A DNA stretch of 64,000 bases from NCBI GenBank assembly GCA_045596865.1, contig JAZODF010000039.1, positions 2,245-66,244 on the forward strand, read 5' to 3'. This document shows, piece by piece, positions 12,009-63,452 of the stretch. The notes below the pieces were generated by a model. It was given only the letters and a program-made list of their open reading frames with translations. It was not told the DNA's origin and made no database searches. How positions within the stretch are numbered: the first letter of the stretch is position 1; every line of letters starts with the position of its first letter. The DNA comes from Eubacteriales bacterium. Its GTDB lineage: Bacteria; Bacillota; Clostridia; Oscillospirales; CAG-272. Both the position numbers and the translations under genes were made by a program.

Positions 12009-12037
12009 TTGATTTGTTCATATCCGTGTGGTAAAAT
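12009..12037 (+). promoter_or_regulatory. Island-1 promoter, near-identical to the RHS promoter
   Basis: TTGATT-N17-(TGG)TAAAAT with extended -10. The 40-nt block 12009-12048 matches 43767-43806 at 37/40 positions. Confidence 0.6.
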
Positions 12038-12097
12038 ATAGGTGGAATTATTAAAACAAATATAACGATTCAATTTATTAAAAGACGTTTTAATGGA

Positions 12098-12355
12098 ATG
12101 GGGCAAACTATAGTGAGAAGACAAAAAGGTAATGAAGGCGAAGAATATATCAATGCCTTTCCAAAATTTAAAAAATGGATTAATGAATGTATGTGTTGTC
12201 ATGAAAAAGGATATAATCCATCAATGCCTGAAAAAATCACAACAGTTGACGGATCATTAGAGGTGTACTATATAAAAAAGTATTTTAAGCCTTTGTTGTT
12301 AAATAAAGATGGTTTGTGCCCACTATGTGAAAAACTACTGAACAAAAAACAGTAA
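12098..12355 (+). CDS. Small Cys-rich (zinc-ribbon-like) hypothetical protein
   Basis: 85 aa, AT-rich. Cys pattern CMCC...CPLC. No convincing RBS, so coding status is uncertain. Confidence 0.4.
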   Translation: MGQTIVRRQKGNEGEEYINAFPKFKKWINECMCCHEKGYNPSMPEKITTVDGSLEVYYIKKYFKPLLLNKDGLCPLCEKLLNKKQ

Positions 12356-12399
12356 ACGGGTTTTATTGATCGATTTGTTTAATTGAATGGGAGATTTCA

Positions 12400-12831
12400 A
12401 TGGATAAATTCATAGTTGATGACATGAAAAAGGAATCGAGAATGGGTTGCCCCCTTATGATAATAAGCTACATATTGGCGGTGTTGACGCTTGTGTATAA
12501 TTATCATACAAGAGAATACAGCAACAAAGAGATGTTAATTATTTTCCTCGTGTTTCTTTTCCTTGGAGCATACAGCATGTATGTATGGCTTTATGGTATT
12601 AATTACAGGGTTGAGTTTAACAACGAAAAAGTTTACTTAAGAACTCTGTTTAGACGAATAGAGCTCAGTATATGCGATGTTAAAAAATACACCTGTAAGA
12701 GGTATAAGAAAAGCGTTTTCTATCAATTCAATCTGATAACAAAAGATAGAAAGGTGTTGATTAACACCAGATACAAAGACGAGTTTGAAAAGGTGTTAAA
12801 AAATAACAACGTCGAGCAAGTAGCTAAATAA
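12400..12831 (+). CDS. Hypothetical 2-TM membrane protein with basic soluble C-terminal domain
   Basis: 143 aa. GGGAG RBS. Two hydrophobic helices, then a Lys/Arg-rich beta-type domain. Confidence 0.6.
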   Translation: MDKFIVDDMKKESRMGCPLMIISYILAVLTLVYNYHTREYSNKEMLIIFLVFLFLGAYSMYVWLYGINYRVEFNNEKVYLRTLFRRIELSICDVKKYTCKRYKKSVFYQFNLITKDRKVLINTRYKDEFEKVLKNNNVEQVAK

Positions 12832-12875
12832 CGTGGTGTGGTTTTAATGATAATGAGAGTAATAGAAAGGTTAAT

Positions 12876-13274
12876 ATGATAATCATTGCTCAAATAGCAT
12901 TTGTTGGTCTGTGCTTTACCTCAACAAGCTTTCTGCACTTATACAAATTTCCTACAGCCAATAAGATTATAACGATCGTAGGAATTATTATTAATTTCTG
13001 TGCCGTTGTATTAGAGCTTATATTTTGGGATTCCTTGATTTATCAGAAAAGTGTTTTAATAATAAGCGTATTACTTCTTACACTTATGTTTTGTATAGCT
13101 GAAATAGCCTGCAAGAAAAAGTACATAAATGTAATAGGAGATTACATCAAAGCAATCATGGAAACATCGTCACATAATCTCACAAACAGTGATATTCAAA
13201 AGCTCTTGCTAAAATCATATAACGAATATGCTTCTTTGAAGGATATAGAGAAAGCACGTCAACTCATACTTTGA
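12876..13274 (+). CDS. Hypothetical 3-TM membrane protein (holin-like topology)
   Basis: 132 aa. GAAAGG RBS. Three hydrophobic helices and an approximately 55-aa hydrophilic helical tail. Confidence 0.6.
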   Translation: MIIIAQIAFVGLCFTSTSFLHLYKFPTANKIITIVGIIINFCAVVLELIFWDSLIYQKSVLIISVLLLTLMFCIAEIACKKKYINVIGDYIKAIMETSSHNLTNSDIQKLLLKSYNEYASLKDIEKARQLIL

Positions 13275-13319
13275 AAACAGACTATTCATATTATAAATCG
13301 TTTTTTGCGAGGTAAGCCT

Positions 13320-13865
13320 ATGAAACTAAAGCTTAACGATGAACCAACAAAAAACATTATTTTGTTTTCTCTTGTAACGATTGCAACTGCGATTTTTACG
13401 ATTTTTCTTTTTACTATTCCGGGTGGTCCTGTAAAGTATAGTGAGAAAAATACATACGAGGTGAGAGGGATAGTAACAGATTTCGAATATGTTCCTCCTA
13501 CTTATTTTGGAGAAAAAATCAGGCATCCTCACATTATCCATTTAGATAACGGTACTGACTGCGTTTTTAATTATTATAATTACGAAATGTATTACAACGA
13601 TCCTGATCAATCAAAAATCAAGAATGAACTTGAAGGTCAATATGTTGTAATTCGATTGTCAAAAATAAATGACAGAGTCATTACTATAAACACGGATGAA
13701 AAATGCTACCTATCTTTTGAAGCAAGCAACAGACAGCATATTATTGGAATAATTGGAGTTGTGTTGCTTGATTTCTCTGTTTTGTTTTCTGCGTATGTGT
13801 TTTGGATAAACCCGATTATTAGTATCAAAAAATGGAAAAAGAAAAAACGGATAAAGAAAAAATAA
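13320..13865 (+). CDS. Hypothetical bitopic membrane protein (N- and C-terminal TM, poly-Lys tail)
   Basis: Start set to MKLKLND (GAGGT RBS 6 nt upstream). About 181 aa. TM, then an approximately 110-aa Tyr/Asn-rich domain, then TM, then KKWKKKKRIKKK. Confidence 0.6.
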   Translation: MKLKLNDEPTKNIILFSLVTIATAIFTIFLFTIPGGPVKYSEKNTYEVRGIVTDFEYVPPTYFGEKIRHPHIIHLDNGTDCVFNYYNYEMYYNDPDQSKIKNELEGQYVVIRLSKINDRVITINTDEKCYLSFEASNRQHIIGIIGVVLLDFSVLFSAYVFWINPIISIKKWKKKKRIKKK

Positions 13866-13889
13866 CTTGTAAATCAATTTATACTCTTT

Positions 13890-13921
13890 GCGAGCTCTCC
13901 TTCGGGAGGGCTCGCTTTTTG
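13890..13921 (+). terminator. Island-1 terminator, identical to the RHS-locus terminator
   Basis: GCGAGCTCTCC-TTCG-GGAGGGCTCGC then TTTTTG. 32/32 identical to 48728-48759. Confidence 0.8.
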
Positions 13922-14046
13922 CTTTGCGGGGGCTTGCGGGCGGCGGGGTGGCGCGTGCGCGTGTGCAGTAGTATCAAAATAAGGTTGTGGGGTTGGGTTT
14001 TTGGGAAATTTGGTGCCATTTTTTTAGGAAATTGCCGCCTTGGCGA

Positions 14047-31241: not shown

Positions 31242-31317
31242 GCTGCTATGGCTCAGCTGGTAGAGCACATCCTTGGTAAGGATGAGGTCCCCGGTCCGAA
31301 TCCGGGTAGCAGCTCCA
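31242..31317 (+). tRNA. tRNA-Thr (anticodon GGU)
   Basis: Manual cloverleaf: acceptor GCTGCTA/TAGCAGC, D arm GCTC-AGCTGGTA-GAGC, anticodon stem CATCC/GGATG with loop TTGGTAA, T arm CCCGG-TCCGAAT-CCGGG, and an encoded CCA. Confidence 0.9.
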
Positions 31318-35975: not shown

Positions 35976-36205
35976 GCAAACGAAACGCCCTCCAATACGG
36001 AGGGCGCATAGTGATTCACACGGGGAAAACGGGCATAGCACGCCCATTGATCGCCGCGGGTATCATCTTCCTCCGTTTGCCCAAGGAATATATACACTCT
36101 CCACGGCAGGCCTTCCGACTTTGACGGCAATGGCTGTTGCGACGGGTTTTCACCGCACTTTCCCTGCTTGAGGCGGCCTGCCTTGCGGCGCGCCACCTAT
36201 CGTGG
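35976..36205 (-). promoter_or_regulatory. Cobalamin riboswitch with terminator expression platform
   Basis: Minus strand reads GGCAGGCC...AGGGAAAGTGCGGTGAAAACCCG...B12 box AGTCGGAAGGCCTGCC (GGCAGGCC pairs with GGCCTGCC), then terminator CGCCCTCC-GTATT-GGAGGGCG-TTTCGTTT. Confidence 0.75.
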
Positions 36206-38323: not shown

Positions 38324-39595
38324 TTACCAATCGGTTACGGTTGCCTCGGTGATCGGGATTGTGACGCTCATATCAACGTCGCCGCGGGTGATGTTGAACA
38401 CCACGGTCGAGTCGACGCGCGCATTGATCATACATTCGGTCGCGTTGTGCGTGCGGTCAGCCTCGTAGAGGATGCCGTCAATCTCGACCGAGCGGATAAT
38501 ATCCCCCTCGAGCAGGCGGACGTCGGCAACGCTGCCCGCGGTTACGCCCGTGATCTTCACGATCTCCTTTTTGTGTACCTTGCCCGTTTCGGTATCGTAC
38601 ACGGTATATCTGTCTTCCACGCCGACGCGCACGCCGATAACGCACCGCTTGACGCAGGTAACGGTCTTGCCGTCGCAGTTGTAGATTATATTCTCGGTCA
38701 CGCTCTTGACGAGGTCGGAGGGGATGGCGTAGCCGATATTCTCCACCTCCTCGGAGGAGGTCTTTGCGTTCACGATGCCGATGAGGTTGCCCTCGGCGTT
38801 ATACAGGCCACCGCCCGAGTTACCCTCGTTGACCGCGGTGTCGATGCGCATCACGCGAATGGTGATGGCGGTTTTCTCATCCGCGGCAAGCAGCTCGATA
38901 TTCTCCGAATCCACGTTGACGTAGCCGACGGTGGCGGAAATTCCGTCGCCCTCGGGGTTGCCGATTGCGATGGCGGTATCAAGCACGCAGACCTCGTCGG
39001 AGGAGGCGAAGGTCGCCGCAACCGCATTCGATTCGGCGAGGATGCGGCTGCCCTTTATTTTCAGGACCGCAATGTCGAAATACATCGACCCGCCGACGTA
39101 CTCGCAGTAAATCTCCTTGCCGCAGTTCTCCATACCGAACAGCTCAACGTACATTTTGTCGCTGATATGACCGGCGGTGGATGCGCTCTCCTCATAAACG
39201 ACGTGGTAATTCGTGATGACGTAGGCGTCCCCGTTCTCCTTATCGAGCTGATAGATCACGCCCGCGCCCTTGCGCGTTTCGCTACGGGAGGAGGTGTAGT
39301 TCGGGCCGTAGCCCGACTTGTATTCAAAATAGCAGGACACGCTGACGGTGGACAGCAGGCCCTTCGCCGCGGCGGCGACGTTGGGGTTCTCGGCGCCGTT
39401 TATCGTGACGTTGACGGTGTCGCCGCCCTCGACGGTGACGTTACCGACCATGCTGTTGTCGATGAGGTTTTCGACCTCCTCGCGCGTCATATACTTTTCG
39501 TCGTCGAATTTCAGGACGCACCCCGTCAGGCAAAGAGCAAGGCTCGCAAATACGAGGAGCATCGCAAAAATCCGCAGTTTATTGCTTTTAATCAT
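38324..39595 (-). CDS. S1C (HtrA/DegP-like) serine protease, lipoprotein
   Basis: Lipobox LTGC. TNYHVV (His), GNSGGGLYN (Ser), and a C-terminal PDZ-like region. Confidence 0.8.
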   Translation of the reverse strand: MIKSNKLRIFAMLLVFASLALCLTGCVLKFDDEKYMTREEVENLIDNSMVGNVTVEGGDTVNVTINGAENPNVAAAAKGLLSTVSVSCYFEYKSGYGPNYTSSRSETRKGAGVIYQLDKENGDAYVITNYHVVYEESASTAGHISDKMYVELFGMENCGKEIYCEYVGGSMYFDIAVLKIKGSRILAESNAVAATFASSDEVCVLDTAIAIGNPEGDGISATVGYVNVDSENIELLAADEKTAITIRVMRIDTAVNEGNSGGGLYNAEGNLIGIVNAKTSSEEVENIGYAIPSDLVKSVTENIIYNCDGKTVTCVKRCVIGVRVGVEDRYTVYDTETGKVHKKEIVKITGVTAGSVADVRLLEGDIIRSVEIDGILYEADRTHNATECMINARVDSTVVFNITRGDVDMSVTIPITEATVTDW

Positions 39596-39885
39596 AAAAA
39601 CTCCGTTACGGTGGCAGTTTTTCGAGATAATTCACCACCTTACAGGTATATTATAATATATCTTTGTGTACGAAGTATTAATAAGATATAAATTTTGTGC
39701 GCATCGCGCGCGGAAAGGGCGGCGAATTGATGAATTGGTTGCAATTCAATTCATGGAGCGAAGCGAGAAATCATGGCGGAGCCAATTCATGATGCGTAAG
39801 CATCAATTCATTCATAAAAACGAACAGAGCAAGAATCGAAGGAGGTTTATCCTTTTACTCTTGCTCTTTTCTTATTTTTCTCTCG

Positions 39886-41013
39886 TTATTTCTTGTTCGG
39901 ATTTTTGAAGAACTGGTAGAGGTAGCAGGGGATCATGCCGTTATAGAGCTTCTTCACCTTATCGGCGCGGCGGCCGTACAGCCGCTCGAAGCCCGCGTGG
40001 CTGGTGATGATGTACGCCTGCCATGGCTCAAGGGTCTTGAAATGCCGTCCGAGGTCGCGGTAAAGCGCCTCCACCTCGGCAAGCTCGCCAAGTCGCTCAC
40101 CGTACGGGGGATTGGTGACGATGGTGCCGCGCCTGCCGCCCGTGGTGATGCGGCGGGCATCCTGGCGAAACACCTTCATCGAGTTGAGCACGCCCGCACG
40201 GTAGGCGTTGGCCTTCGTGATCTCAAGGCAATCCTCGTCGATATCGGAGGCGTACGCCTCGAAGTCGCTCTTAACGATGCCCTCGAGCGCCTCCTCCTTC
40301 GCATCCCGCCACAGCCACTCGGGGATATAGGGGAACGCCTCGGCGGCGAAGTGACGGCGCATTCCGGGGGCGATGTTGCGCATGCGCATTGCCGCCTCGA
40401 TGGCTATCGTACCACTGCCGCACATGGGGTCCCAGAGGAGGACGTCCTCCCTCGGGCGGGAGGTGGCAACGATAGCCGCGGCGAGCGTTTCGCGAATAGG
40501 GGCGGCGTTGGATTCGCGGCGATAGCCGCGCTTATGCAGGGGCTCGCCCGAGGTGTCGATCATCAGGGTCGCCTCGTCATTTAGGATAAAGAACTCGACC
40601 TTATACTTCCCCGCGTCCTCGGGGAATACCGAGATGCCGTACCGCTCGGACATTGAGCGGACGATTGCCTTTTTGATGATGGCCTGGCAATCGGGGATGG
40701 AGTGCAGGGCGGAGTGTATAGAATGGCCCGTGACAGGAAATGCGTCGTTTTTGCCGATGAAGTCCGCCCACGGGAGGGCGCGCGTGCCCTCAAAGAGCAT
40801 ATCGAAGGTGGTCGCGGTAAAGGAGCCGACCTTAATATACACCCGCTCGGCATAGCGCAGAAAGACGTTGGCAAGCGCGACCGCCTGCTCGTCGCCCGCG
40901 AAGGTGACCCTGCCGTTTATTGTGGAAATGCGCTCGTACCCGAGGGCGTCGATCTCCTCGCCGAGGAGGTGCTCAAGCCCAAACAGGCAGGTCGCAACAA
41001 GCTGTAGCCTCAT
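39886..41013 (-). CDS. THUMP-domain class I SAM-dependent RNA methyltransferase
   Basis: 375 aa. DPMCGSGTIAIEAA (SAM binding) and NPPYGERLG. Confidence 0.85.
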   Translation of the reverse strand: MRLQLVATCLFGLEHLLGEEIDALGYERISTINGRVTFAGDEQAVALANVFLRYAERVYIKVGSFTATTFDMLFEGTRALPWADFIGKNDAFPVTGHSIHSALHSIPDCQAIIKKAIVRSMSERYGISVFPEDAGKYKVEFFILNDEATLMIDTSGEPLHKRGYRRESNAAPIRETLAAAIVATSRPREDVLLWDPMCGSGTIAIEAAMRMRNIAPGMRRHFAAEAFPYIPEWLWRDAKEEALEGIVKSDFEAYASDIDEDCLEITKANAYRAGVLNSMKVFRQDARRITTGGRRGTIVTNPPYGERLGELAEVEALYRDLGRHFKTLEPWQAYIITSHAGFERLYGRRADKVKKLYNGMIPCYLYQFFKNPNKK

Positions 41014-43559: not shown

Positions 43560-43588
43560 ATATTAGCATAAAACGCACTATTTGTCAA
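43560..43588 (-). promoter_or_regulatory. Putative MFS promoter
   Basis: Minus strand TTGACA-N17-TAATAT. Confidence 0.45.
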
Positions 43589-43589
43589 A

Positions 43590-43655
43590 TGTTATATAAT
43601 ATTTCATATATTTTCCTGCACGTGTTATATAATATTTCATATATTTTCCTACACG
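43590..43655 (+). repeat. Two tandem copies of an AT-rich 33-bp unit
   Basis: TGTTATATAATATTTCATATATTTTCCT(G/A)CACG at 43590-43622 and 43623-43655. Confidence 0.85.
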
Positions 43656-43766
43656 CGCGCCGTGCACGCGACAAAAAGGACAAAAGCCCGTCCAACTTTT
43701 GCCCAACCCATATCACCCGGCAAATACCGCCGCAACCCCCGTCACGCCATAAACAGCACAAAGGCA

Positions 43767-43795
43767 TTGATTTGTTCATATCTATATGGTAAAAT
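43767..43795 (+). promoter_or_regulatory. RHS-cassette promoter
   Basis: TTGATT-N17-(TGG)TAAAAT, with AAAGGAGAA RBS and ATG 39 nt downstream of the -10. Paralogous to 12009-12037. Confidence 0.6.
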
Positions 43796-43833
43796 ATAGG
43801 TGGAATCAATAAAAACAAAAAAGGAGAAACGAA

Positions 43834-46800
43834 ATGGCTTATGTGAAAAATTTCAATCCAGGACAGATTTTGCTTGACCTTCCGAGTGCTAACCACATTT
43901 ATGAGCTGCCACTATTGTCGTTTGGCGACGTTAACGGAAGCGTTGGAATTTCGGTTATTTATAACCGCCAGTTTGCCGCTATGGGCGATCAGCGCTTCGG
44001 TTTTTACATGGGCTACAAGCTGAATTTGCAGAAAAAGATTCTGTTTAGCGACAATAGCTCGGGTAATTACATCGACGCCAACGGAAAAACGATTCCCTTT
44101 TGGAGAACAGAAGGAGTTTATCTTTTTGAGGACGAGGGCACTCGCGTAATGGTTCCTATCGGAACATCATACAAGGTATTCTACCCGGATAATAGCTATG
44201 AAATATTCGATCAATCCGGAAGAATCACGCTAATGTACGATAAATACGGGCATATTTTGGCAAGCTTAACGTACGGTAGCAACGGACTTTTAACATCCAT
44301 AACCATTAAGAACAAGCACGTTGTTTCCGTATCGAACAATGCTGCCAATATGATTTCCTCGATCTCACACAATGGCTTATCTATTGGATTTGTTCACCCT
44401 GCCGGTCCGCTTAACGTTTCGCATTATTCGGGGGTATCGTACTCGATCGTGCCCACAAGCGGATATGGCTTGACCGCCACCGCCACGGGGACAGAAAACT
44501 CGGTATCCGTTTCGCATTCGGTTCGCTTGACGCTCTCGGGAACGAATGTACGCTCGTCATACTTGATCAATAACAACGAGATCGATTATCAAATCTATTC
44601 CTTCCCCGATGAGGTTAATTGTCAGACACTGTATAACCAAGTTGAAATAACGGACAAAAACGGCGTAAAAACGAGAACGCAGTATCAAGGAAAGCACCCA
44701 ACCTATTCGTACGAGGTGACCGGTAATGATGACGTAGCCTTCGTGGATAACAAATACGGCGGTGCGGTAACTTTACATAGGCAATATTTAACGACCGAGG
44801 ACGGAAAGCCTAAAGGAATACAGCGGCTCAAAGATGGAGCCGCGATGTTGATTGCTGGTTCCAAAGAGTGGTTTTACGATATAACCGAGTATTCCTCGGT
44901 TATGGCAAACGGCTACTTCGTTTTGTCGGGATGGATCAATGCTCAAACCGAGTGTGACGATCCGGAAAACGTAGTTATGCAGCTCGACACAAGCACGGGT
45001 CCGACTTATTTTAGCATCGACGCCACCCCCTGCAACACTTGGAGATATTTCGCTCATACCTTCAAGACAAGCACCGCATTTGTTCGGATTCGCATTGACT
45101 CTAACAAAGCAGATTTAAGAGATTTAAGAATCACGTTCCAAGAAACCGGCAAGATCAATAACGGTGATTCATCCCATCTCACGCTCACGTCAGACGTGTT
45201 GTATTGCCGCAGAGCGAACACCGCCTCGTATGATAAAGTCCCCTTGTCTGAAGCAACCTTCAGTCACGGAGCGTTTAGTGTTCCGAACGAGTATGAACCA
45301 AACGCGAAGGTATATTACAACGACATCCTGAGATATAAGAAAAACCAAGCGGCGGGTGTTAATACAAATCATTTTTATTACAACAACGGTGAGTGTGTTT
45401 ACATATTGTCCTCTGCTTCGGATTCCTACATCACGGTTGAATACAACGGTGTTTCCTATAATCTGCACGATGCGTTTCTTGGGAATGAGGTATTCCGTCA
45501 CGGACACGGAAACGTCATCACTCAGATCAACAACACGACCGTGGCGATCGGGTCGCAAACCCAACGCCGTTTGGTAATACAAACCAAGAAAGCTACCGGC
45601 GAGCTGATTTCTTCACAGACGCTGGATAACAAACTCGACGTCATATCCGTAACAAATGAAGGGGTCACAACGACCTACGAAAGAACGAACGGCCTTATTA
45701 CGTCCGAGAGTGTTTCGGATTCGAGCGGACAGATTTTGTTCACTCGCACTATGTCATACGGTACGGATTCGGGCGGTAACGACGTCGTGACGTTGGTGGA
45801 CGAGTTTGGAAAAAGCACAGTCATTACGCTAGATTCAAACCACGGTGTCGAGCTATCTCTTACCGCCCCGGATAATAGTATAACCTCGAACGAATACGAC
45901 AGCGATTACTGCGCGCTGACCAAGCGCACGTTCTCCGGCTCCGCGCCTCGCTCCAATCAGCTTGCTTATTTTGCAGGCAATCTTCAAGGTGTTAATACGG
46001 GCTCTTTAGGCTACGAGTTCGAATACACCGACGGAAAGTTATCTAAGGTCGAAAAATCCGACGCCCCCGTAGAACAGCACGTAAATACCGATACCTCTAC
46101 GACAAGTCACTACCCATCGTCGCAGTCACCGCTTTATTCGGAGATAACAAACTTTGATAAATACGGCAGACCCATTTTGATAGAAAACCAAGCCGCATTT
46201 ACCTACAGCGTATTTCCCAACTATAACAGTTCCGGCGAAATGACGTCCAACATAAACAACGCAAGCTCCGTTCCGGCAACCGTTATCGACCATGTCGCGA
46301 ATGAAACGACGAGGTATTCGTATAACACCTCGGGCAAGGTGATTTCCGCGCTCGTAGCAGCCACGGATGATTATTCGGACAAAAAACGGGTCAGCGGCTG
46401 CGTCTACGATGCTATCGGACGCCTTTCCATGCAAAATTTCGCGTATGGCACAGGCACGAACGATATGGTTTTCGAGCAAATCGGATATAGAAAGGCGGAA
46501 ACAGACCCGACGGCAAACAACGTCATTCAATCTTATTCATATTATCACATTGAACACTCATCCGGTATTCCCGTCGCAAGCTCGCAAAATACGTTCGATT
46601 CCTTCAACCGTATTTCGGAAAGGTCAATCAGCTTGGGTAATGCCGTCTTTACAAAGCAGTTCAACTATAACAAAACTTGGTTGAGCAGCGAGTACCTTTG
46701 CCTAAATGATTCGTTATCCGAAACAATCTATTACAGTCGTGACGATATGGGCAGGCTCGCCTCCACATTGATAAGCAATCCTAATTCAGCGTATCACACC

Positions 46801-48324
46801 TCATACGCCTACGATTCGTTCGGTCAGCTCGTCCGCGAGAATAATCAACGGCTTGGTAAAACCTTTACGTACTCCTACGACACCCTCGGAAATATTACGA
46901 GCGTGGATGAATACGCCTACACCACGTCAAGCACGCTCGGCACGAGAACCTCGCAAAAGAGCTTCGTATATCAGGCGGATAGGTTAACAAATGCAAACGG
47001 ACAAAGCATCGGATACGACACCCTCGGGCGTCCAACCACCGTCGGTACGCTAAGTTATCAATGGTCGAGGAACAAGCTCTCGGGAGTCACCCGTGGCTCG
47101 TTGTCGCAGTACGGGGCGCTATATCATAATATCACCTTTGATTACAACGGTTTGGGTCAGCGCACGGGAAAGCATTATCAGTATGATACGACCGTTGGAA
47201 GCACTAACGATTTGTCCTATACGTACGATACCGAGTACAACTACGATGACGCGGGTAGGCTGATGCGCGAGGTTTGCACCGAGCATTATATGCACGGCGC
47301 AACGACCGTTTACGAGCTTATTTACCTCTATAACGAGTCGGGTATGATCGGCGTACGCCTGAGCGTTAACGGTGGGGCATTTACCGACTATTACTACCGC
47401 AGAAATGCTCTCGGCGACGTGATTGCTATTTATAACACAAGCTACACGCGCGTGGTTGAGTATGCCTACGACGCGTGGGGCAATTGCACGACCCTTATCG
47501 GCAGTACGACCGCAATAGGACAGATAAATCCCATCCTATACAGAGGATACTACCGCGATAGGGAAACGGGGCTATATTTCTGCAATTCGAGGTATTATGA
47601 CCCTAGCTGGCGTAGGTTTATCTCGCCCGACGATACTGCGTATCTTGATCCCGAAAACGTCAACGGTCTGAACTTGTATGCATACTGTGGTAATGATCCT
47701 GTAAATTATGTCGATCCGAGTGGTTGTAGTTCTAACTCTTTATGGAAGACTATTTTTGGGGTGGCTATTGGGGTTGGATTAGCCGCTTTGGCTATTGGTG
47801 CAACCATACTTACGGGTGGTTCCTTTGCGGCAATAGGTATTGGTTTCGTATTAGGAGCTACAGCTAGTTTTGTTGGACAGGGTGTTGGAAATGTCCTTAG
47901 TGGCGAGAACTTCTTTGATGGAATAAGCATTGGTTCCATAATTATGGGAGGATTGGCAGGAGCTGCATTCGCCACCGGTGTAGGAGGTTTATGGGGTGCA
48001 GTTGCTATCGGAGCAGCCTCTAACGCTGGAACTTCTGCTTTGGAAAATAAGAGTTGGGCAAATATTGCAGGAAGTGCGGTAGTTGGAGGAATCGCAGCAG
48101 GTATTGGATATGGAGTCGGAAAGTTTGCCTCCAACCATATTTATAAAAACACAGGGATGACATTTAATGACTTCTATAATTTGGGGATAGTTGATACGAA
48201 TCCAGTTATGGCCGCATTCTATGCCCTTGGAGCGTCTTGGTACACGTTTTTGCCAAATATTGCTACATCATCCTCGAGAGGATTAATCAAATTTCTAGGC
48301 AATAAAGGAATTGGGTGGTTTTAA
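43834..48324 (+). CDS. RHS/YD-repeat polymorphic toxin with glycine-zipper transmembrane C-terminal domain
   Basis: 1496 aa. Many YD repeats (e.g. YDKYGHILASLTYGSNG, YSYDTLGNITSV, YNYDDAGRLMRE). RHS core (YYYRRNALGDVIAIY...YAYDAWGN...YRGYYRDRETGLYFCNSRYYDPSWRRFISPD...YAYCGNDPVNYVDPSG). A 199-aa Gly/Ala-rich hydrophobic tail follows. Confidence 0.9.
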   Translation: MAYVKNFNPGQILLDLPSANHIYELPLLSFGDVNGSVGISVIYNRQFAAMGDQRFGFYMGYKLNLQKKILFSDNSSGNYIDANGKTIPFWRTEGVYLFEDEGTRVMVPIGTSYKVFYPDNSYEIFDQSGRITLMYDKYGHILASLTYGSNGLLTSITIKNKHVVSVSNNAANMISSISHNGLSIGFVHPAGPLNVSHYSGVSYSIVPTSGYGLTATATGTENSVSVSHSVRLTLSGTNVRSSYLINNNEIDYQIYSFPDEVNCQTLYNQVEITDKNGVKTRTQYQGKHPTYSYEVTGNDDVAFVDNKYGGAVTLHRQYLTTEDGKPKGIQRLKDGAAMLIAGSKEWFYDITEYSSVMANGYFVLSGWINAQTECDDPENVVMQLDTSTGPTYFSIDATPCNTWRYFAHTFKTSTAFVRIRIDSNKADLRDLRITFQETGKINNGDSSHLTLTSDVLYCRRANTASYDKVPLSEATFSHGAFSVPNEYEPNAKVYYNDILRYKKNQAAGVNTNHFYYNNGECVYILSSASDSYITVEYNGVSYNLHDAFLGNEVFRHGHGNVITQINNTTVAIGSQTQRRLVIQTKKATGELISSQTLDNKLDVISVTNEGVTTTYERTNGLITSESVSDSSGQILFTRTMSYGTDSGGNDVVTLVDEFGKSTVITLDSNHGVELSLTAPDNSITSNEYDSDYCALTKRTFSGSAPRSNQLAYFAGNLQGVNTGSLGYEFEYTDGKLSKVEKSDAPVEQHVNTDTSTTSHYPSSQSPLYSEITNFDKYGRPILIENQAAFTYSVFPNYNSSGEMTSNINNASSVPATVIDHVANETTRYSYNTSGKVISALVAATDDYSDKKRVSGCVYDAIGRLSMQNFAYGTGTNDMVFEQIGYRKAETDPTANNVIQSYSYYHIEHSSGIPVASSQNTFDSFNRISERSISLGNAVFTKQFNYNKTWLSSEYLCLNDSLSETIYYSRDDMGRLASTLISNPNSAYHTSYAYDSFGQLVRENNQRLGKTFTYSYDTLGNITSVDEYAYTTSSTLGTRTSQKSFVYQADRLTNANGQSIGYDTLGRPTTVGTLSYQWSRNKLSGVTRGSLSQYGALYHNITFDYNGLGQRTGKHYQYDTTVGSTNDLSYTYDTEYNYDDAGRLMREVCTEHYMHGATTVYELIYLYNESGMIGVRLSVNGGAFTDYYYRRNALGDVIAIYNTSYTRVVEYAYDAWGNCTTLIGSTTAIGQINPILYRGYYRDRETGLYFCNSRYYDPSWRRFISPDDTAYLDPENVNGLNLYAYCGNDPVNYVDPSGCSSNSLWKTIFGVAIGVGLAALAIGATILTGGSFAAIGIGFVLGATASFVGQGVGNVLSGENFFDGISIGSIIMGGLAGAAFATGVGGLWGAVAIGAASNAGTSALENKSWANIAGSAVVGGIAAGIGYGVGKFASNHIYKNTGMTFNDFYNLGIVDTNPVMAAFYALGASWYTFLPNIATSSSRGLIKFLGNKGIGWF

Positions 48325-48662
48325 TGAAAATGAGAGCAATAGAAATAGCAAACGGTTTTTTGTTGGTTTCATTAACAAGTGTAGATGTGATGTTAATTGT
48401 TAAATTCGGTTTAGCTAACGACGGTTGGCTTCTCATTGCACTTGCATTGATTTTCTTTATTATTTATATTGGTGGAAGACTTTCTCCTCGTTTTGCAGTG
48501 ACTTTGATACATAAACTATCAAAGAGAATGTATAGAGATTCAGACAACATTTCAGTACCGACATTGGAGGAAGCAAAGGAAACCTTTAAGAGCAGATTGC
48601 CTTATTTGTTGGTGATCGTTAATATTCTTATGCTGTTATTGATACTCACATTTTTGTTATAA
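48324..48662 (+). CDS. Putative cognate immunity protein (3-TM membrane protein)
   Basis: ATG overlaps the RHS TAA (TAATG). About 112 aa, AT-rich, two N-terminal TMs plus one C-terminal TM. An alternative GTG start is at 48315. Confidence 0.6.
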   Translation: MKMRAIEIANGFLLVSLTSVDVMLIVKFGLANDGWLLIALALIFFIIYIGGRLSPRFAVTLIHKLSKRMYRDSDNISVPTLEEAKETFKSRLPYLLVIVNILMLLLILTFLL

Positions 48663-48727
48663 CGTTCGCGTCATATAAGAAGTTTGGATTTACGGATCAA
48701 GAATAACTACATCAATTTATACCCATC

Positions 48728-48759
48728 GCGAGCTCTCCTTCGGGAGGGCTCGCTTTTTG
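48728..48759 (+). terminator. RHS-locus terminator
   Basis: GCGAGCTCTCC-TTCG-GGAGGGCTCGC then TTTTTG. Identical to 13890-13921. Confidence 0.8.
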
Positions 48760-48864
48760 TTTTTTCGAAAACGATGTAATTTTTCCCAAAAATATGGACA
48801 AACGGCGCGGGATGTGGTATAGTTAGGCTATACCAAAGGTATAGACACCGAAAGGAGAAACACT

Positions 48865-51213
48865 ATGATTACCGATATTCGTCCCGCCGTGGCGCTTCGC
48901 CTCGGCTCGCAAAAGGCACTGATAAACGGGGTGCGCACCATGCTGGACGCCGCGCCCTTCCTTCGTGACGGGGTGGTTTACCTCCCCACCGACGCGCTTG
49001 CCGACGTTCAACCGAGCGGCGAGATCATCACCGAGGGCGGTGCGAAATTTGCCACCGCGGTGAAGGACGCGTATATAAATATTGATTCGATGGGTCTTAT
49101 AATGATAGACCGCGACCCCGAGATAACCACCCTCAACCACAACGAGCACCGCGACTACATGATGAACCTGATGGCAGAGATGCTGTTCGACATTGAGCGC
49201 GTGCCGATGACGGCGGGACAATACGCACCCGCGACCGAGGAGCAAAGAGCGGCATACAAGCGGATCGGTGCGGATATTATCGCGCGCCTTGGCGCGCGGG
49301 TCGCGGTGCACCCCTGCATTTTCGGTAGCGCCGAGATCTTTGCAAGGCTCCGCGAGCTTTACGAGCGGGGCGAGGAGAGCACGCGGGGAATATTTGCCGC
49401 TGTGCTTGCCGAGTGTGAGCGGCTTTCCGCAAGGGAGGAGTTCGCCCTCAACCCCGAGGAAAACGGCCTTCTGACACCCATCACTATGCCCGCGGATTTC
49501 GTCGGCGGATATGACGTTGGCGGGCGACACTCCTTCTCCGAGGGGAAGGCCGACGTCGCAGTTTGCCTCGCCTTCGGTTACCTGATAACGGGCAAGGCGC
49601 TCTACGCGAAGCAGGCATACTACATCATTCGCGGCATCTGCGATTTCGAGCACTGGGGTCCCGGGCATTTCCTCAACTGCGCGGGTGCGGCGGCGCTCTC
49701 GGCGACGGTCTACGACTGGCTCTACCACGCGTGGGGAGAGATGGGCCTCGACCGCGGTATCATCAAGCGCGAGGTTTACTCACACGGAATATATCAGGGC
49801 TATCTGTCGGCTATTCACGACCGCTCCGACTACCCGTCGGCGAAGCAGGGCACGGGCTGGCGCTTCAAGGCGAAGCCCGACAACTGGAACGCGGTGTGCA
49901 ACGGCAGCCTTATCGTGGCGGCGTTGTCCTTCCTCACCGACGGGGTTGACGACGTCCTCGGACAGGAACAGATTGACATAACCGCCGAGCTCATCGGCTG
50001 CTCGCTCGCTACGATTTCACACGGGTCGCTGGTTTTGAAGCAATACGCGCCCGACGGCTCCTACGTCGAGTCGAACTCCTACTGGTCCTACGGCACCTCG
50101 GCGCTCTTCCGCGCTATCGGTGCGCTCTACGATGCGCTCGGCACCGACCTTGGTCTGTCGCTCTCGGGCGGACTTGACAAGACCTGCTACTACGCCCTCT
50201 CGGCAGAGTCGGCGGACTTCGTCGGATGGAATTACCACGACGGCTCGCTCGGGTCGCAGAACTCGAGCATATTCAACCTGTTTGCGACCGTGTCGGGCGA
50301 TCACGCGCTCTACGCATTCCGCGACCTGCACGTCCGCCGCGGCAAGTCGCCGAACTACCTTGACCTGCTCTACCACCCGCTCGCACGCGGGTACGAGATG
50401 CCCAAGCTGACCGCGCCCGCCCTCGACTGCTATATGGAGGGTATCGACGCGCTCGTAGTGCGTGACGGATGGGAGTCGGGCTCGCTTTACGCGGGAATCA
50501 TGGGCGGCTACAATCCTAATGGGGGTAGCCACAATCAGCTCGACTCGGGCTCCTTCGTCTATCACAATCACGGTGTGCTCTGGCTCACGGATATGGGCCC
50601 CGATTACTACAATATCACGGGCGGTTATTTCGGCAACTACAAGCTCTATCGCAGGTGTGCCGAGGGTAACAACGTCCTCTCGCTCCCCTCAATCGACTAC
50701 GGTCAGCTCGGCGACGCGACGGGCTACCTTTACGAGTACCGCACGGACACTACCCCCTACGCCATTATCGACAACCACGAGGTCTACGGTGACAAGGTCA
50801 CGGTGGCAAAGCGCGGTATGCTCCTGACAAACGACAGAAGGACGACCGTCATTCAGGACGAGGTCGAATTCGTCGCACCCACCGACGCGTATTGGGTCGC
50901 GCATTTCAATTCGAGCGAGATCACCGCGGCGGTCAGCAAGGATGGCGCGAGCGTCCTTCTCACCCACAAGGACGGCAAGTCCATCGCCATCCGCGCGATT
51001 GGCGACGCGGTGAGATTCATCGTACGCGACTGCTACGATTTCCTCCTGCCGACGACCGACAACTTCGAGGGTGAGTACGACCGCAGCTCCTACTCGCGCC
51101 TTGTTATCGAGTACAAGGGCACGGAGAAAATCAACCTCGCCGTCGTTATCGAGGACGAGTGCGAGCACGGCTACGACAAAGTCATCCCGATGGACGAGTG
51201 GGTAAATATTTAA
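48865..51213 (+). CDS. Heparinase II/III-like family protein with N-terminal stalk-like domain
   Basis: 782 aa. NWNAVCNGSL (toroid region) and GGSHNQLDSGSFVYHNHGVLWLTDMGPDYY (Hepar_II_III-like). No signal peptide. Confidence 0.6.
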   Translation: MITDIRPAVALRLGSQKALINGVRTMLDAAPFLRDGVVYLPTDALADVQPSGEIITEGGAKFATAVKDAYINIDSMGLIMIDRDPEITTLNHNEHRDYMMNLMAEMLFDIERVPMTAGQYAPATEEQRAAYKRIGADIIARLGARVAVHPCIFGSAEIFARLRELYERGEESTRGIFAAVLAECERLSAREEFALNPEENGLLTPITMPADFVGGYDVGGRHSFSEGKADVAVCLAFGYLITGKALYAKQAYYIIRGICDFEHWGPGHFLNCAGAAALSATVYDWLYHAWGEMGLDRGIIKREVYSHGIYQGYLSAIHDRSDYPSAKQGTGWRFKAKPDNWNAVCNGSLIVAALSFLTDGVDDVLGQEQIDITAELIGCSLATISHGSLVLKQYAPDGSYVESNSYWSYGTSALFRAIGALYDALGTDLGLSLSGGLDKTCYYALSAESADFVGWNYHDGSLGSQNSSIFNLFATVSGDHALYAFRDLHVRRGKSPNYLDLLYHPLARGYEMPKLTAPALDCYMEGIDALVVRDGWESGSLYAGIMGGYNPNGGSHNQLDSGSFVYHNHGVLWLTDMGPDYYNITGGYFGNYKLYRRCAEGNNVLSLPSIDYGQLGDATGYLYEYRTDTTPYAIIDNHEVYGDKVTVAKRGMLLTNDRRTTVIQDEVEFVAPTDAYWVAHFNSSEITAAVSKDGASVLLTHKDGKSIAIRAIGDAVRFIVRDCYDFLLPTTDNFEGEYDRSSYSRLVIEYKGTEKINLAVVIEDECEHGYDKVIPMDEWVNI

Positions 51214-61776: not shown

Positions 61777-62090
61777 TTTGTTTATGTATTATTGAGGTTT
61801 TAAGATCTTTAAAAGCCGATGATTGAGTCTTCTCATCCTTCATTATTTGAGTAAATTAATTAAAGCACCGCCAAAAAAGATAATATGACCTAACGGCGCA
61901 AAAACCAAAAACTCGATACAGCGAAAATGCTTGTATAAATGCTCACATTTTTTCAACCGCAAGAAAATATTGTCGGTATCAACAGTAAGCGCCGGATAGT
62001 GACGATCATTGCGCCAACGAAACAAGGAGGAATGCGATCCAAGCGTTAATACAGCCCCTACGAAAGGTCGTGCGTTCATAGATCGCGCCG

Positions 62091-62633
62091 CTACCTGCCA
62101 AACTCAAATATTGTTTTCGTTTCCTTTCCGTCGGATACGGTTAATCTTGATCTGTATTTAAATAACGCGGGGCGCTCATAGGTGTAAACGTAATCGCCGA
62201 GTATGTACTTGTAACCGCCAAAAGTAGATTTCCAACCGTCCATCTTTCCGCTTTCCTTAACCAACCTAACCGCCGCGGCATCTAAATCACATTTGTTACC
62301 GTTTCTATCATAGCAATAGGCGGTTTGGGTTAATCCAACATATACATACAGAAACTCACCAAAATACAACAAAGCGCCATACCCTTGGCCTTCAGCAAAC
62401 AACCTTTTAGAAAAAAGCTCCTCGCCCTCATTTGAATACGCATTCACCCTCAAATAAGCAACAGTTGAGGTTTTTTCAAAGTAGCAAATTGCCACGTCAC
62501 CGTTGGTTCGGTTCAAGGTCATATTAGATGGCGCGGTTACGTTTCTCATTGGAACCGCCGCGAATAAAACCACCAACAATCCAACTATTAAAATAATTGC
62601 TATTATTTTCTTGACGTTCACGTTTACACTCAC
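62091..62633 (-). CDS. Hypothetical membrane-anchored protein (lower-GC gene)
   Basis: About 176-180 aa. N-terminal TM, Tyr/Gly-rich beta-type ectodomain. Start ambiguous (GTG at 62633 or 62621). Confidence 0.5.
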   Translation of the reverse strand: MSVNVNVKKIIAIILIVGLLVVLFAAVPMRNVTAPSNMTLNRTNGDVAICYFEKTSTVAYLRVNAYSNEGEELFSKRLFAEGQGYGALLYFGEFLYVYVGLTQTAYCYDRNGNKCDLDAAAVRLVKESGKMDGWKSTFGGYKYILGDYVYTYERPALFKYRSRLTVSDGKETKTIFEFGR

Positions 62634-62909
62634 TCCTTTATGTAGGCTGACGGGTTTGTCGTCGATTGCGTATAGGCTTCGGTGATATAGACAAATCTGA
62701 TTTAATATTAAAAACGCCTGTCAATTAAAGTATATCACTCGCGGTGTAGCTTGTCAACAACAGGGCATTTTGTGTTTTAATTTCTCCTATGTACGATAAA
62801 TAACCGCCTTTGTTCGGGTTTTTCGCAAAATTTCATAAATTATTATTTTCTGCGCGCGGGTTTACTTTTAGGCGGGCGGGTGTTATACTAACATCGTGGA
62901 GGTGATGGT

Positions 62910-63452
62910 ATGCTAATGTTCCTTGCGCTGATCGATGAGGGGCGGCAGGACGATTTTATCAAGATATACACGCGCTACAAGTCGCTCGCAACCAAGACCG
63001 CGGGATATTACCTCAGCAACCGATACGACGTCGAGGAGATCGTACAGACCGCGTTTTTCAGGATTTCACAATGCCTTGACAGGCTGGACACCGACAACCC
63101 GCGCAGGGTCGCAAATTTCGTCATCACGGTGACGCGGAATTGCTGTTACGACCTTTTAAGAAAGCAGAGGCGTTCGCCGAAGACCGTGACGATCGACTCG
63201 GTCGAGCTTTTGCCCGACGAGGAGGACGCGTACGAGAGGCTGATCGACAGGGAAACCTACGCCGAGGTCGTCAAATACATATTGAAAATGCCCGAGAAAT
63301 ACAGGTTCGTTTTATACCTTTACTACGCCTGTGACCTTTCGATAACGGCGATTGCCGTAGCGCTGAATATCAGCAGGAGCACCGCACACGGCAGGCTGAC
63401 GAAGGGGATCGAGATGATAAAGAGGCGGATCGGAGGGGTGGATAATGGATAA
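62910..63452 (+). CDS. ECF-type RNA polymerase sigma-70 factor
   Basis: 180 aa. Region 2 (EEIVQTAFFRISQCLDRL...TRNCCYDLLRK) and region 4 HTH (LSITAIAVALNISRSTAHGRLTKG). Confidence 0.85.
   Translation: MLMFLALIDEGRQDDFIKIYTRYKSLATKTAGYYLSNRYDVEEIVQTAFFRISQCLDRLDTDNPRRVANFVITVTRNCCYDLLRKQRRSPKTVTIDSVELLPDEEDAYERLIDRETYAEVVKYILKMPEKYRFVLYLYYACDLSITAIAVALNISRSTAHGRLTKGIEMIKRRIGGVDNG

Follow-up and report, generated by a model that had tools for sequence, protein, structure and literature searches.

A stretch of 64,000 nucleotides (nt) from a Eubacteriales bacterium (assembly GCA_045596865.1, contig JAZODF010000039.1, positions 2,245 to 66,244 of the forward strand), referred to here as the window, carries a cassette of only two genes at positions 43767-48763. 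The first gene codes for a protein of 1496 amino acids (aa) with RHS/YD repeats, and the second for a small protein with hydrophobic segments. As argued below, the cassette probably encodes an RHS polymorphic toxin together with its cognate immunity protein, and would be used in competition between bacteria. An earlier inspection of the letters (the original prediction) had described a self-contained unit in which a promoter, a ribosome-binding site, the RHS gene, a small membrane-protein gene coupled to it through TAATG and a terminator follow one another. This order is borne out from the -35 hexamer to the terminator, as listed here by window position and strand.

43767..43795 (+), cassette promoter, TTGATT-17-TAAAAT with a TG extended -10, starting TTGATTTGTTCATATC; the exact 5′ end of the portable unit
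43821..43826 (+), ribosome-binding site AAGGAG, 7 nt 5′ of the ATG, read directly from the sequence
43834..48324 (+), RHS open reading frame (ORF), 1496 aa, uninterrupted; its ATG is the first start codon past an in-frame stop
43834..47466 (+), RHS/YD beta-shell, aa 1-1211, with RHS_repeat and YD_repeat matches and a conserved N-terminus (aa 1-45)
47467..47724 (+), RHS-associated core, aa 1212-1297 (TIGR03696), with a predicted aspartyl autoprotease motif, D1266 ... D1294-P-S-G1297
47725..48321 (+), predicted polymorphic C-terminal toxin domain, aa 1298-1496, Gly/Ala-rich, with eight predicted helices
48324..48662 (+), predicted cognate immunity gene, 112 aa, three hydrophobic segments; its ATG overlaps the RHS stop codon as TAATG
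48728..48763 (+), intrinsic terminator, made of a hairpin (48728-48753; 11-bp stem, 8 of the pairs GC) and a T-run, where the portable unit ends exactly on its 3′ side
43579..43766 (no strand), left chromosomal flank, the promoter region of a major facilitator superfamily (MFS) gene, outside the cassette and devoid of homology to other cassette loci
12009..13925 (+), second site, with no RHS gene, GC 0.32, four small ORFs (85, 143, 132 and 186 aa)

The promoter scan as a whole was no richer than shuffled sequence, with 11 promoter-like sites where 10.2 are expected from shuffles. The cassette promoter is nevertheless accepted, because this very site is conserved at other loci. The GC content of the cassette (0.455) is lower than that of the 5-kb flanks (0.564 and 0.589), as had been noticed earlier; it is 0.439 in the tail-coding part of the RHS gene and 0.330 in the small gene.

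Profile searches with HMMER confirm that the 1496-aa protein belongs to the RHS family. It matches RHS_repeat (PF05593, E = 8e-8) in Pfam and YD_repeat (TIGR01643, E = 2e-8) in NCBIfam, and the RHS-associated core model TIGR03696 (Rhs_assc_core) covers aa 1212-1297 over 75 of its 76 positions (E = 2e-21, 76 bits for a cut-off of 32.5). The core terminates in the motif YAYCGNDPVNYVDPSG, whose last residue is G1297 (VDPSG); the end of the core at DPSG, proposed from the letters, is thus also the end given by the profile. Residues D1266 and D1294 align with the two motif aspartates of RhsP, RhsA and Tse15. In the structure of RhsP after cleavage (8h8a), the chain ends exactly at the aligned DPTG, and the entry labeled as "pre-autoproteolysis" (8h8b) reads APTG where 8h8a reads DPTG, with the substitution at the position aligned to D1294. 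From these alignments we infer, on good grounds, that the window protein is cut after G1297.

A model of aa 1-640 made with AlphaFold2 (AF2) from 32 family members is confident (predicted local distance difference test, pLDDT, 87; predicted template modeling score, pTM, 0.85) and shows beta-structure from residue 11 onward. When this model is searched with Foldseek, the top matches are Rhs cocoons of type VI secretion systems (T6SSs; 8qjc, 8qjd, 7pq5 and 7q97), teneurins and TcB-TcC, with a best E of 3.5e-12. Residues 641-1297 are related to solved Rhs shells by sequence profile only; the profiles match solved Rhs proteins only in about the last third of the protein. The shell also contains a beta-rich insertion at approximately aa 325-470; a Pfam scan of this insertion (aa ~316-480) and of the first 69 aa returned no family.

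The region that follows the core is a real polymorphic tip. A closely related shell (P0002; 90% identical to the window protein and 95% identical in DNA) and a more distant one (P0003; 78% and 89%, respectively) carry tails unrelated to that of the window, and the downstream genes are unrelated as well. Both DNA alignments stop at the same position, 47705, which is codon 1291, inside NDPVN and six codons before the end of DPSG. Among 36 family members, the tails, which range from 164 to 220 aa, fall into 20 clusters. The tail is therefore not an invariant element of the family, and the expectation of a variable cargo downstream of DPSG holds as far as the sequence is concerned. It holds only in part for the Gly-rich character of this cargo: a hydrophobic helix within 12 residues of DPxG is a property of the family, present in 31 of 36 tails (approximately 17 of the 20 clusters), compared with 8 of 29 in other RHS families. 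In four proteins from other RHS families of Firmicutes (P0044, P0046, P0051 and P0054), one hydrophobic helix stands between the core motif and a more polar C-terminal region, which in two of them resembles, by eye, GIY-YIG-type nucleases. This pattern suggests that RHS toxins of Gram-positive bacteria repeatedly place a segment for membrane insertion behind the cleavage site.

The switch from the core to a Gly/Ala-rich hydrophobic domain is as abrupt as originally described. The tail of the window protein has 199 aa, of which 38 are Gly, 30 are Ala and 12 are charged; that is, 34% Gly plus Ala and 6% charged residues, in comparison with 13% and 17.5% in the shell. It contains 19 small-xxx-small-xxx-small motifs. 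In an AF2 model built with 22 homologues (pLDDT 78, pTM 0.60), the tail is all-helical, with eight helices. Hydropathy averages 1.5 or more in the first three of them, and helices are also predicted for the last 50 aa, which are partly hydrophobic. An exhaustive HMMER search of 1.84 billion representative sequences found 42 relatives of the tail, all of them C-terminal, after an RHS core and DPxG. They are 38-56% identical over approximately 190 aa, and their conservation runs across the full length, including the Gly-rich helices. This tail family is present on four different RHS backbones, three of which are longer than that of the window (1859, 1927 and 1972 aa). The first of the longer ones, P0202 (1859 aa), has by eye an N-terminus like a signal peptide, and an action of the tail from outside the target cell is argued because the same tail family is found on such a protein.

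Searches for a known relative of the tail were negative. No Pfam family matches it at E <= 0.1, and nothing was found at E <= 0.001 when the model was compared by Foldseek with the PDB and BFVD or when the tail profile was compared with PDB sequences. In ten other tails of the family, Pfam gave only sub-threshold matches to DUF4160, Gly-zipper_Omp and Microp_apicomplexa_3. The activity predicted for the tail is deduced from its composition, from its helices as modeled and from its association with a membrane protein. On this basis, the scales tip slightly towards a tail that would itself depolarize membranes.

The gene directly downstream of the RHS gene changes together with the tip. The window protein (P0001) is followed by a gene for 112 aa, P0002 by two genes for 151 and 144 aa, and P0003 by one for 138 aa (L003_138), whose product has no hydrophobic stretch by eye; none of these are alike. 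Conversely, the tails of P0003 and P0021 belong to the same cluster, and their downstream genes are 32% identical. In all five loci that were read for the tail family of the window (the window itself, L007 and those of the other three backbones, P0194, P0200 and P0202), the next gene encodes a membrane protein of 110-132 aa with three segments. In each case, two hydrophobic segments are followed by a polar loop of approximately 35 aa and by a hydrophobic segment at the C-terminus. When the profiles of close and distant partners were compared (hhalign), homology was supported with a probability of 74% and an E of 2.9e-5. Because it co-varies with the tail and not with the shell, the small protein is considered the specific partner of the tail. 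The position directly downstream and the co-variation with the tip that mark immunity genes are thus both found here, as a genetic association, and the 112-aa protein is most likely the cognate immunity protein of the tail.

The tail and its partner also recur as a block in another species (L007), with 93% identity to the window for the tail and 75% for the partner; the DNA is 84% identical from codon 1232, inside the core, to near the end of the partner gene. This block is the first unit of an orphan array (L007 8016-12700) composed of fragments of RHS cores with varied tails and small downstream genes. At another locus, downstream of an RHS gene bearing the tail family of the window, a stand-alone ORF (L088 9371-10367) starts with ...VDPSG, continues with what appears by eye to be an orphan tail of the P0008/P0027 type and is followed by a gene for 127 aa.

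The cassette is an insertion, as had been supposed, and its locus is not an ancestral one with synteny in relatives. Neither of the two refuting conditions named in the original prediction, an invariant tail and an ancestral locus, therefore applies. In a related species, identified by a heparinase-like protein that is 59% identical, the RlmL, GDPD and MFS genes share a strand; the heparinase-like gene lies on the opposite one, 248 nt away and with no RHS gene in between, and this junction is the empty site. In three conspecific contigs (97.8% DNA identity), the sequence of the window is kept rightward from the terminator, and upstream of the terminator lies the 3′ end of a different membrane-protein gene. 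Two other conspecific contigs (L001 and L002; 97-98% identity) carry the P0002 cassette at a second site, between phosphofructokinase and MGS genes. A third context, with genes for a leucine-rich-repeat protein and a glycosyltransferase at its flanks, is seen in L003, where the cassette has the same two ends as in the window. Exact-protein look-ups of the window RHS, MFS and GDPD proteins, aimed at the left junction in other strains, returned no record.

The ends of the unit are precise to the base. In all cases, the homology between cassettes starts at the -35 hexamer and stops after the T-run of the terminator. The promoter sequence of 35 nt is present, with 0-2 mismatches, at window positions 12009-12043 and in L001, L002 and L003. 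Similarly, the 31-nt hairpin with its T-run is identical at window positions 13890-13920 and in L001, L002 and L003, and has one mismatch in L084-86. No target-site duplications, inverted repeats or recombinase were found at the cassette ends examined. A scan of metagenome contigs with the terminator hairpin gave eight matches, all of them unrelated generic terminators that have nothing else in common with the window.

The same promoter and terminator delimit the second site of the window itself (12009-13925), with one mismatch to the consensus in the 35 nt of the promoter and a terminator identical to that of the cassette. Inside this site, a 31-nt remnant (12838-12868) of the junction between toxin stop and immunity start of the window cassette is found. 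The 143-aa and 186-aa proteins encoded here are 44% and 42% identical to proteins whose genes in L052 and L095-97 lie downstream of an RHS gene or of a piece of one; in L095-97, the matching gene directly follows an orphan RHS fragment. The site is read as an orphan immunity array driven by the cassette promoter. It is headed by the 85-aa ORF (12098-12355), which is Cys-rich and, by eye, similar to a zinc ribbon. Another Cys-rich, zinc-ribbon-like ORF of 73 aa (by eye; L095 9549-9770), with no Pfam match, lies just upstream of the RHS gene in L095-97.

Approximately 40 database proteins of 1465-1524 aa have the entire architecture of the window RHS protein. Their N-terminus is strongly conserved (MxYVKN..GQ..LDLP....HELPLLSFGD) and, where the organism is stated, all come from metagenome-assembled genomes (MAGs) of uncultured Clostridia or Eubacteriales from gut or rumen samples. 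Among the viral contigs of IMG/VR, nothing matches the N-terminal 700 aa of the family, the tail or the partner, and a link to phages is therefore not supported; the RHS relatives that do occur on these contigs match the C-terminal half only.

As for the surroundings of the cassette, the original prediction had placed it between MFS and heparinase-like genes. The MFS identity of the left neighbor was confirmed, but the heparinase label of the right one (48865-51213) is weak, since its match to Hepar_II_III_C is below threshold (23.1 bits for a cut-off of 24). The label derives also from the source name of one homologue that is 46% identical; the family is widespread in MAGs of Clostridia, mostly unannotated. 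The neighboring genes inspected are housekeeping genes. Between the cassette and the MFS promoter, a terminator-like hairpin with 11 pairs and a T-run is located on the minus strand (43678-43704); it may protect the MFS gene against read-through, or it may have remained from the intergenic region that preceded the insertion. Directly upstream of the promoter-like site of the MFS gene (minus strand), there is an AT-rich tandem duplication of 33 nt (43590-43655), with copies that are 97% identical, which could be a binding site for a regulator or a product of slippage. Elsewhere, the window contains two other low-GC patches (39500-39999, 0.44; 62001-63000, 0.43), an AdoCbl-II riboswitch on the minus strand (36100-36177; 36.9 bits for a gathering score of 36.5) and a tRNA-Thr(GGT) gene on the plus strand (31242-31317).

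Taken as a toxin and immunity pair, the cassette would work as follows. The 1496-aa protein would fold as a closed YD/RHS beta-cocoon (aa ~11-1297) that encloses its own hydrophobic C-terminal domain of 199 aa and thus keeps it soluble. The aspartyl-protease motif of the core (D1266 and D1294) would cut after G1297, leaving the tail free within the shell. At the target cell, the tail would be released and inserted into the cytoplasmic membrane, where its helices, rich in glycine zippers, may dissipate the membrane potential, as a pore or as an ionophore. In the producer, the 112-aa protein, presumably co-transcribed and translationally coupled, would reside in the membrane and neutralize the cognate tail. 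The tip and the immunity gene would be exchanged as one block by recombination within the conserved sequence that codes for the core, and the whole unit, from promoter to terminator, occupies at least three chromosomal sites among close relatives. Where the RHS gene is lost, immunity genes can persist under the same promoter, for instance, at window 12009-13925.

To our knowledge, experimental work on RHS toxins concerns almost only Gram-negative T6SSs, Tc toxins and a few cases in Gram-positive bacteria that are linked to Sec or to type VII secretion systems (T7SSs). In Pseudomonas aeruginosa, Tse5-CT, a hydrophobic tail inside an Rhs cocoon, partitions into bilayers, where it forms pores selective for cations; the integral membrane protein Tsi5 neutralizes it (PMC9637101; see also PMC10684867). 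As in the window, an RHS cocoon with its core motif is followed by a hydrophobic tail of 150-200 aa, with predicted transmembrane and amphipathic helices and no enzymatic signature, and a small integral membrane immunity protein (so by prediction in the window) is encoded directly downstream. In contrast, the PAAR-like N-terminus, VgrG partner and T6SS of Tse5 have no counterpart in the window, whose host belongs to monoderm Clostridia, and the partner is predicted to have three segments instead of the two of Tsi5. The profile and model of the window tail match no PDB chain, and the toxin domain of Tse5 is reported as unresolved in its cryo-electron microscopy model.

Among Gram-positive bacteria, WapA of Bacillus subtilis is reportedly an RHS toxin of intercellular competition, as Koskiniemi et al. 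are said to have described in 2013. WapA is exported by Sec, with a signal peptide and wall-binding repeats, and its characterized tips are tRNases. Like the window system, it is an RHS protein of Gram-positive bacteria whose C-terminal toxin is polymorphic and whose immunity gene lies next to it, for use between cells. Unlike WapA, the window protein has no signal peptide or wall-binding repeats (Pfam) and bears a tail for which an action on membranes is predicted. A WapA of Streptococcus suis is likewise reported as a Sec-exported RHS toxin of a Gram-positive bacterium (PMC12704120). In Listeria, the Rhs toxin LrhA is associated with a T7SSb and has a membrane-associated candidate immunity protein, and its truncated forms consist only of Rhs repeats and the toxin domain, with an export route that is stated to be unclear (PMC10327511). 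These truncated forms pose the same question of export as the window protein. By contrast, full-length LrhA has a helical N-terminal region, a DUF6531 domain and WXG100-like partner genes beside essC, none of which are found in the cassette or its neighbors. The TcB-TcC cocoon of ABC (Tc) toxins shares with the window protein the fold of the YD shell, the aspartyl autoproteolysis motif and a variable C-terminal cargo. Nevertheless, the window shell is a single chain of 1300 aa, and no TcA or TcB is encoded among the neighboring genes examined. Moreover, the presence of a cognate immunity gene in the cassette indicates a bacterial target, unlike that of Tc toxins.

Toxins that depolarize membranes are also known on other carriers. 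TelE is a T7SS toxin of this kind with glycine zippers. So, reportedly, is EsxX of Gram-positive bacteria (PMC12744356), and TspA is named as a membrane-depolarizing T7SS toxin in PMC10327511; ionophoric toxins are also reported for contact-dependent growth inhibition (CDI) systems (PMC11630599). All of them combine a helical toxin domain rich in small residues with a membrane protein for immunity, and they are polymorphic and occur in hotspots with orphan immunity genes, as seen for the window system. Their carriers are LXG proteins or CdiA, whereas that of the window is an RHS cocoon in which no LXG domain or homology was detected. The acquired interbacterial defense clusters of Bacteroidales are islands of orphan immunity genes. 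Window 12009-13925 is similar to such islands in that it has immunity-type genes with no toxin gene, two of the proteins being homologous to products of genes in the immunity position elsewhere. It differs from them in that the promoter and terminator of the RHS cassette are kept, the site is armed in a conspecific strain and no recombinase is present. Orphan Rhs immunity genes are also reported for Serratia (PMC10539506).

Several observations weigh against the reading of the cassette as a toxin that acts on membranes from the outside. Confidence in the AF2 model of the tail is only moderate (pTM 0.60), Pfam, the PDB and BFVD yield no relative of the tail whose function is known, and the homology of the distant partners is likewise moderate (74% by hhalign). 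In addition, the hydrophobic start of the tail is near-universal in the family and thus not special to the cargo of the window. Because most family tails start in this way, part of the tail could be a translocation device instead of the lethal element. The hydrophobic part would then serve for entry, and the lethal element would be the short C-terminal piece (~aa 1440-1496) or an activity other than pore formation. Entry domains are a known property of CdiA-CTs. Precedent is also found in the T6SS effector Tde1, whose glycine zipper is reported to be needed for entry (PMC10240207). The hydrophobic helix is retained across 20 otherwise unrelated tail clusters. Furthermore, the tails of P0003 and P0018 consist of helices plus a distinct polar C-terminal piece with a weak DUF4160-like match, and the partner of a polar-ended tail (L003_138) lacks, by eye, any hydrophobic stretch. 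For the tail of the window, however, conservation extends over all ~190 aa, Gly-rich helices included, the last 50 aa are helical and partly hydrophobic like the rest, and the partner is a membrane protein, like the partners of known depolarizing toxins. Such a division of labor within this tail, the chief rival inside the toxin reading, is considered unlikely, if worth keeping in mind.

Other explanations place the system inside the producing cell or give one of its parts a different role. The RHS protein might be a leaderless cocoon that frees its depolarizing tail in the cytoplasm upon phage infection, with the small protein as antitoxin. Such abortive infection would agree with the lack of an export signal or delivery domain in the window RHS, with the lack of secretion genes near the loci examined and with the location of one relative in an island that also harbors a serine recombinase and a holin gene, besides an HTH/ImmA pair. 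Yet the combination of polymorphic tips with orphan tails and orphan immunity arrays is the hallmark of conflict between cells, and the same tail is borne by an RHS protein with a signal-peptide-like N-terminus. In addition, no PADLOC model matched the RHS protein, its partner or the four ORFs of the second site, and neither the family nor the tail nor the partner occurs on IMG/VR contigs, all of which makes this explanation very improbable. Still less credit is given to the 112-aa protein being a holin-like factor for the export or release of the RHS protein rather than for immunity. Its three hydrophobic segments within ~110 aa bring it near the size of class I holins, the missing export route invites such a role, and there is a weak match to Phage_holin_2_2 (E = 0.007). 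This match, however, reaches only 16.4 bits for a cut-off of 25.4; a 35-aa polar loop divides segment 2 from segment 3, and the protein has a hydrophobic C-terminus instead of a charged one. Shells that are 90% identical have unrelated partners, and the partner of P0003 has, by eye, no hydrophobic stretch. A general export or holin role was accordingly ruled out, as the gene co-varies with the tail and not with the shell and the match is sub-threshold. Finally, the Gly-rich tail could be imagined to anchor a teneurin-like surface or adhesion protein permanently in the membrane, or to be a structural part of it, given the resemblance of the shell to teneurins and the near-universal hydrophobic start. 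This is the least plausible of the alternatives, since the tail is replaced wholesale between near-identical shells, together with dedicated partner genes, and the cleavage motif is intact; moreover, in a protein that lacks a signal peptide, such an anchor at the C-terminus would keep the shell cytoplasmic.

For a toxin acting between cells, the main difficulty is delivery. No signal peptide or LXG/WXG, PAAR, VgrG, SpvB/TcdB/TcB or wall-binding domain was detected in the RHS protein (Pfam, NCBIfam, inspection of the N-terminal region and the model). The N-terminus (MAYVKNFNPGQILLDLPSANH...) has no hydrophobic core, and beta-shell structure begins as early as residue 11. No neighbor gene is conserved across the window, L001, L003, L091-94 and L095-97, and hence none hints at a secretion machine. 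No WXG100-like genes were found upstream of relatives, the 73-aa gene before RHS in L095-97 being Cys-rich. An island in L095 (3366-24401) contains a large serine recombinase, a Peptidase_U49 gene, a pair similar to helix-turn-helix (HTH) and ImmA genes, two full RHS genes of the family and an orphan C-terminal RHS fragment; directly upstream of its second RHS gene are a weak XhlA-like gene and a Phage_holin_5_2 gene. These holin-type genes are a single lead towards a lysis-type release, and nothing more.

It is tentatively proposed, as a combination that we regard as doubtful, that the leaderless RHS proteins of gut Clostridia (1465-1524 aa) form a separate, autonomous delivery class in which non-classical release, a self-inserting helix and a mobile unit go together. 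If this were true, a complete cocoon would need no carrier domain, and release could proceed, for instance, by lysis of part of the population or by a holin-type route. The glycine-zipper helix with which nearly all of the tails start, right after the cleavage site, would then be a self-inserting module for translocation or pore formation. The unit from promoter to terminator would in turn travel as a mobile gene cassette from one chromosomal hotspot to another, keeping its ends precise to the base although it encodes no recombinase.

The overall logic of RHS toxin and immunity is classical here; what is new is the family of the tail and that of its partner. Out of the ordinary are the lack of a delivery domain in a monoderm lineage, the hydrophobic tail starts throughout the family and the base-precise portability, together with a sister locus that has immunity genes only. 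The question of delivery is thereby sharpened: how does an RHS cocoon of 165 kDa with no recognizable export domain leave a monoderm cell and reach the membrane of a competitor? The study of LrhA offers a parallel (PMC10327511). The cassette also provides a clean natural case of the swapping of tip and immunity, with a breakpoint six codons before the cleavage motif, and shows one hotspot in two states within a species, armed with a full RHS gene in another strain and disarmed, with immunity genes only, in the window. To the biology of uncultured gut Clostridia, it adds an unannotated tail family with a predicted action on membranes, along with a corresponding family of predicted immunity proteins of the membrane.

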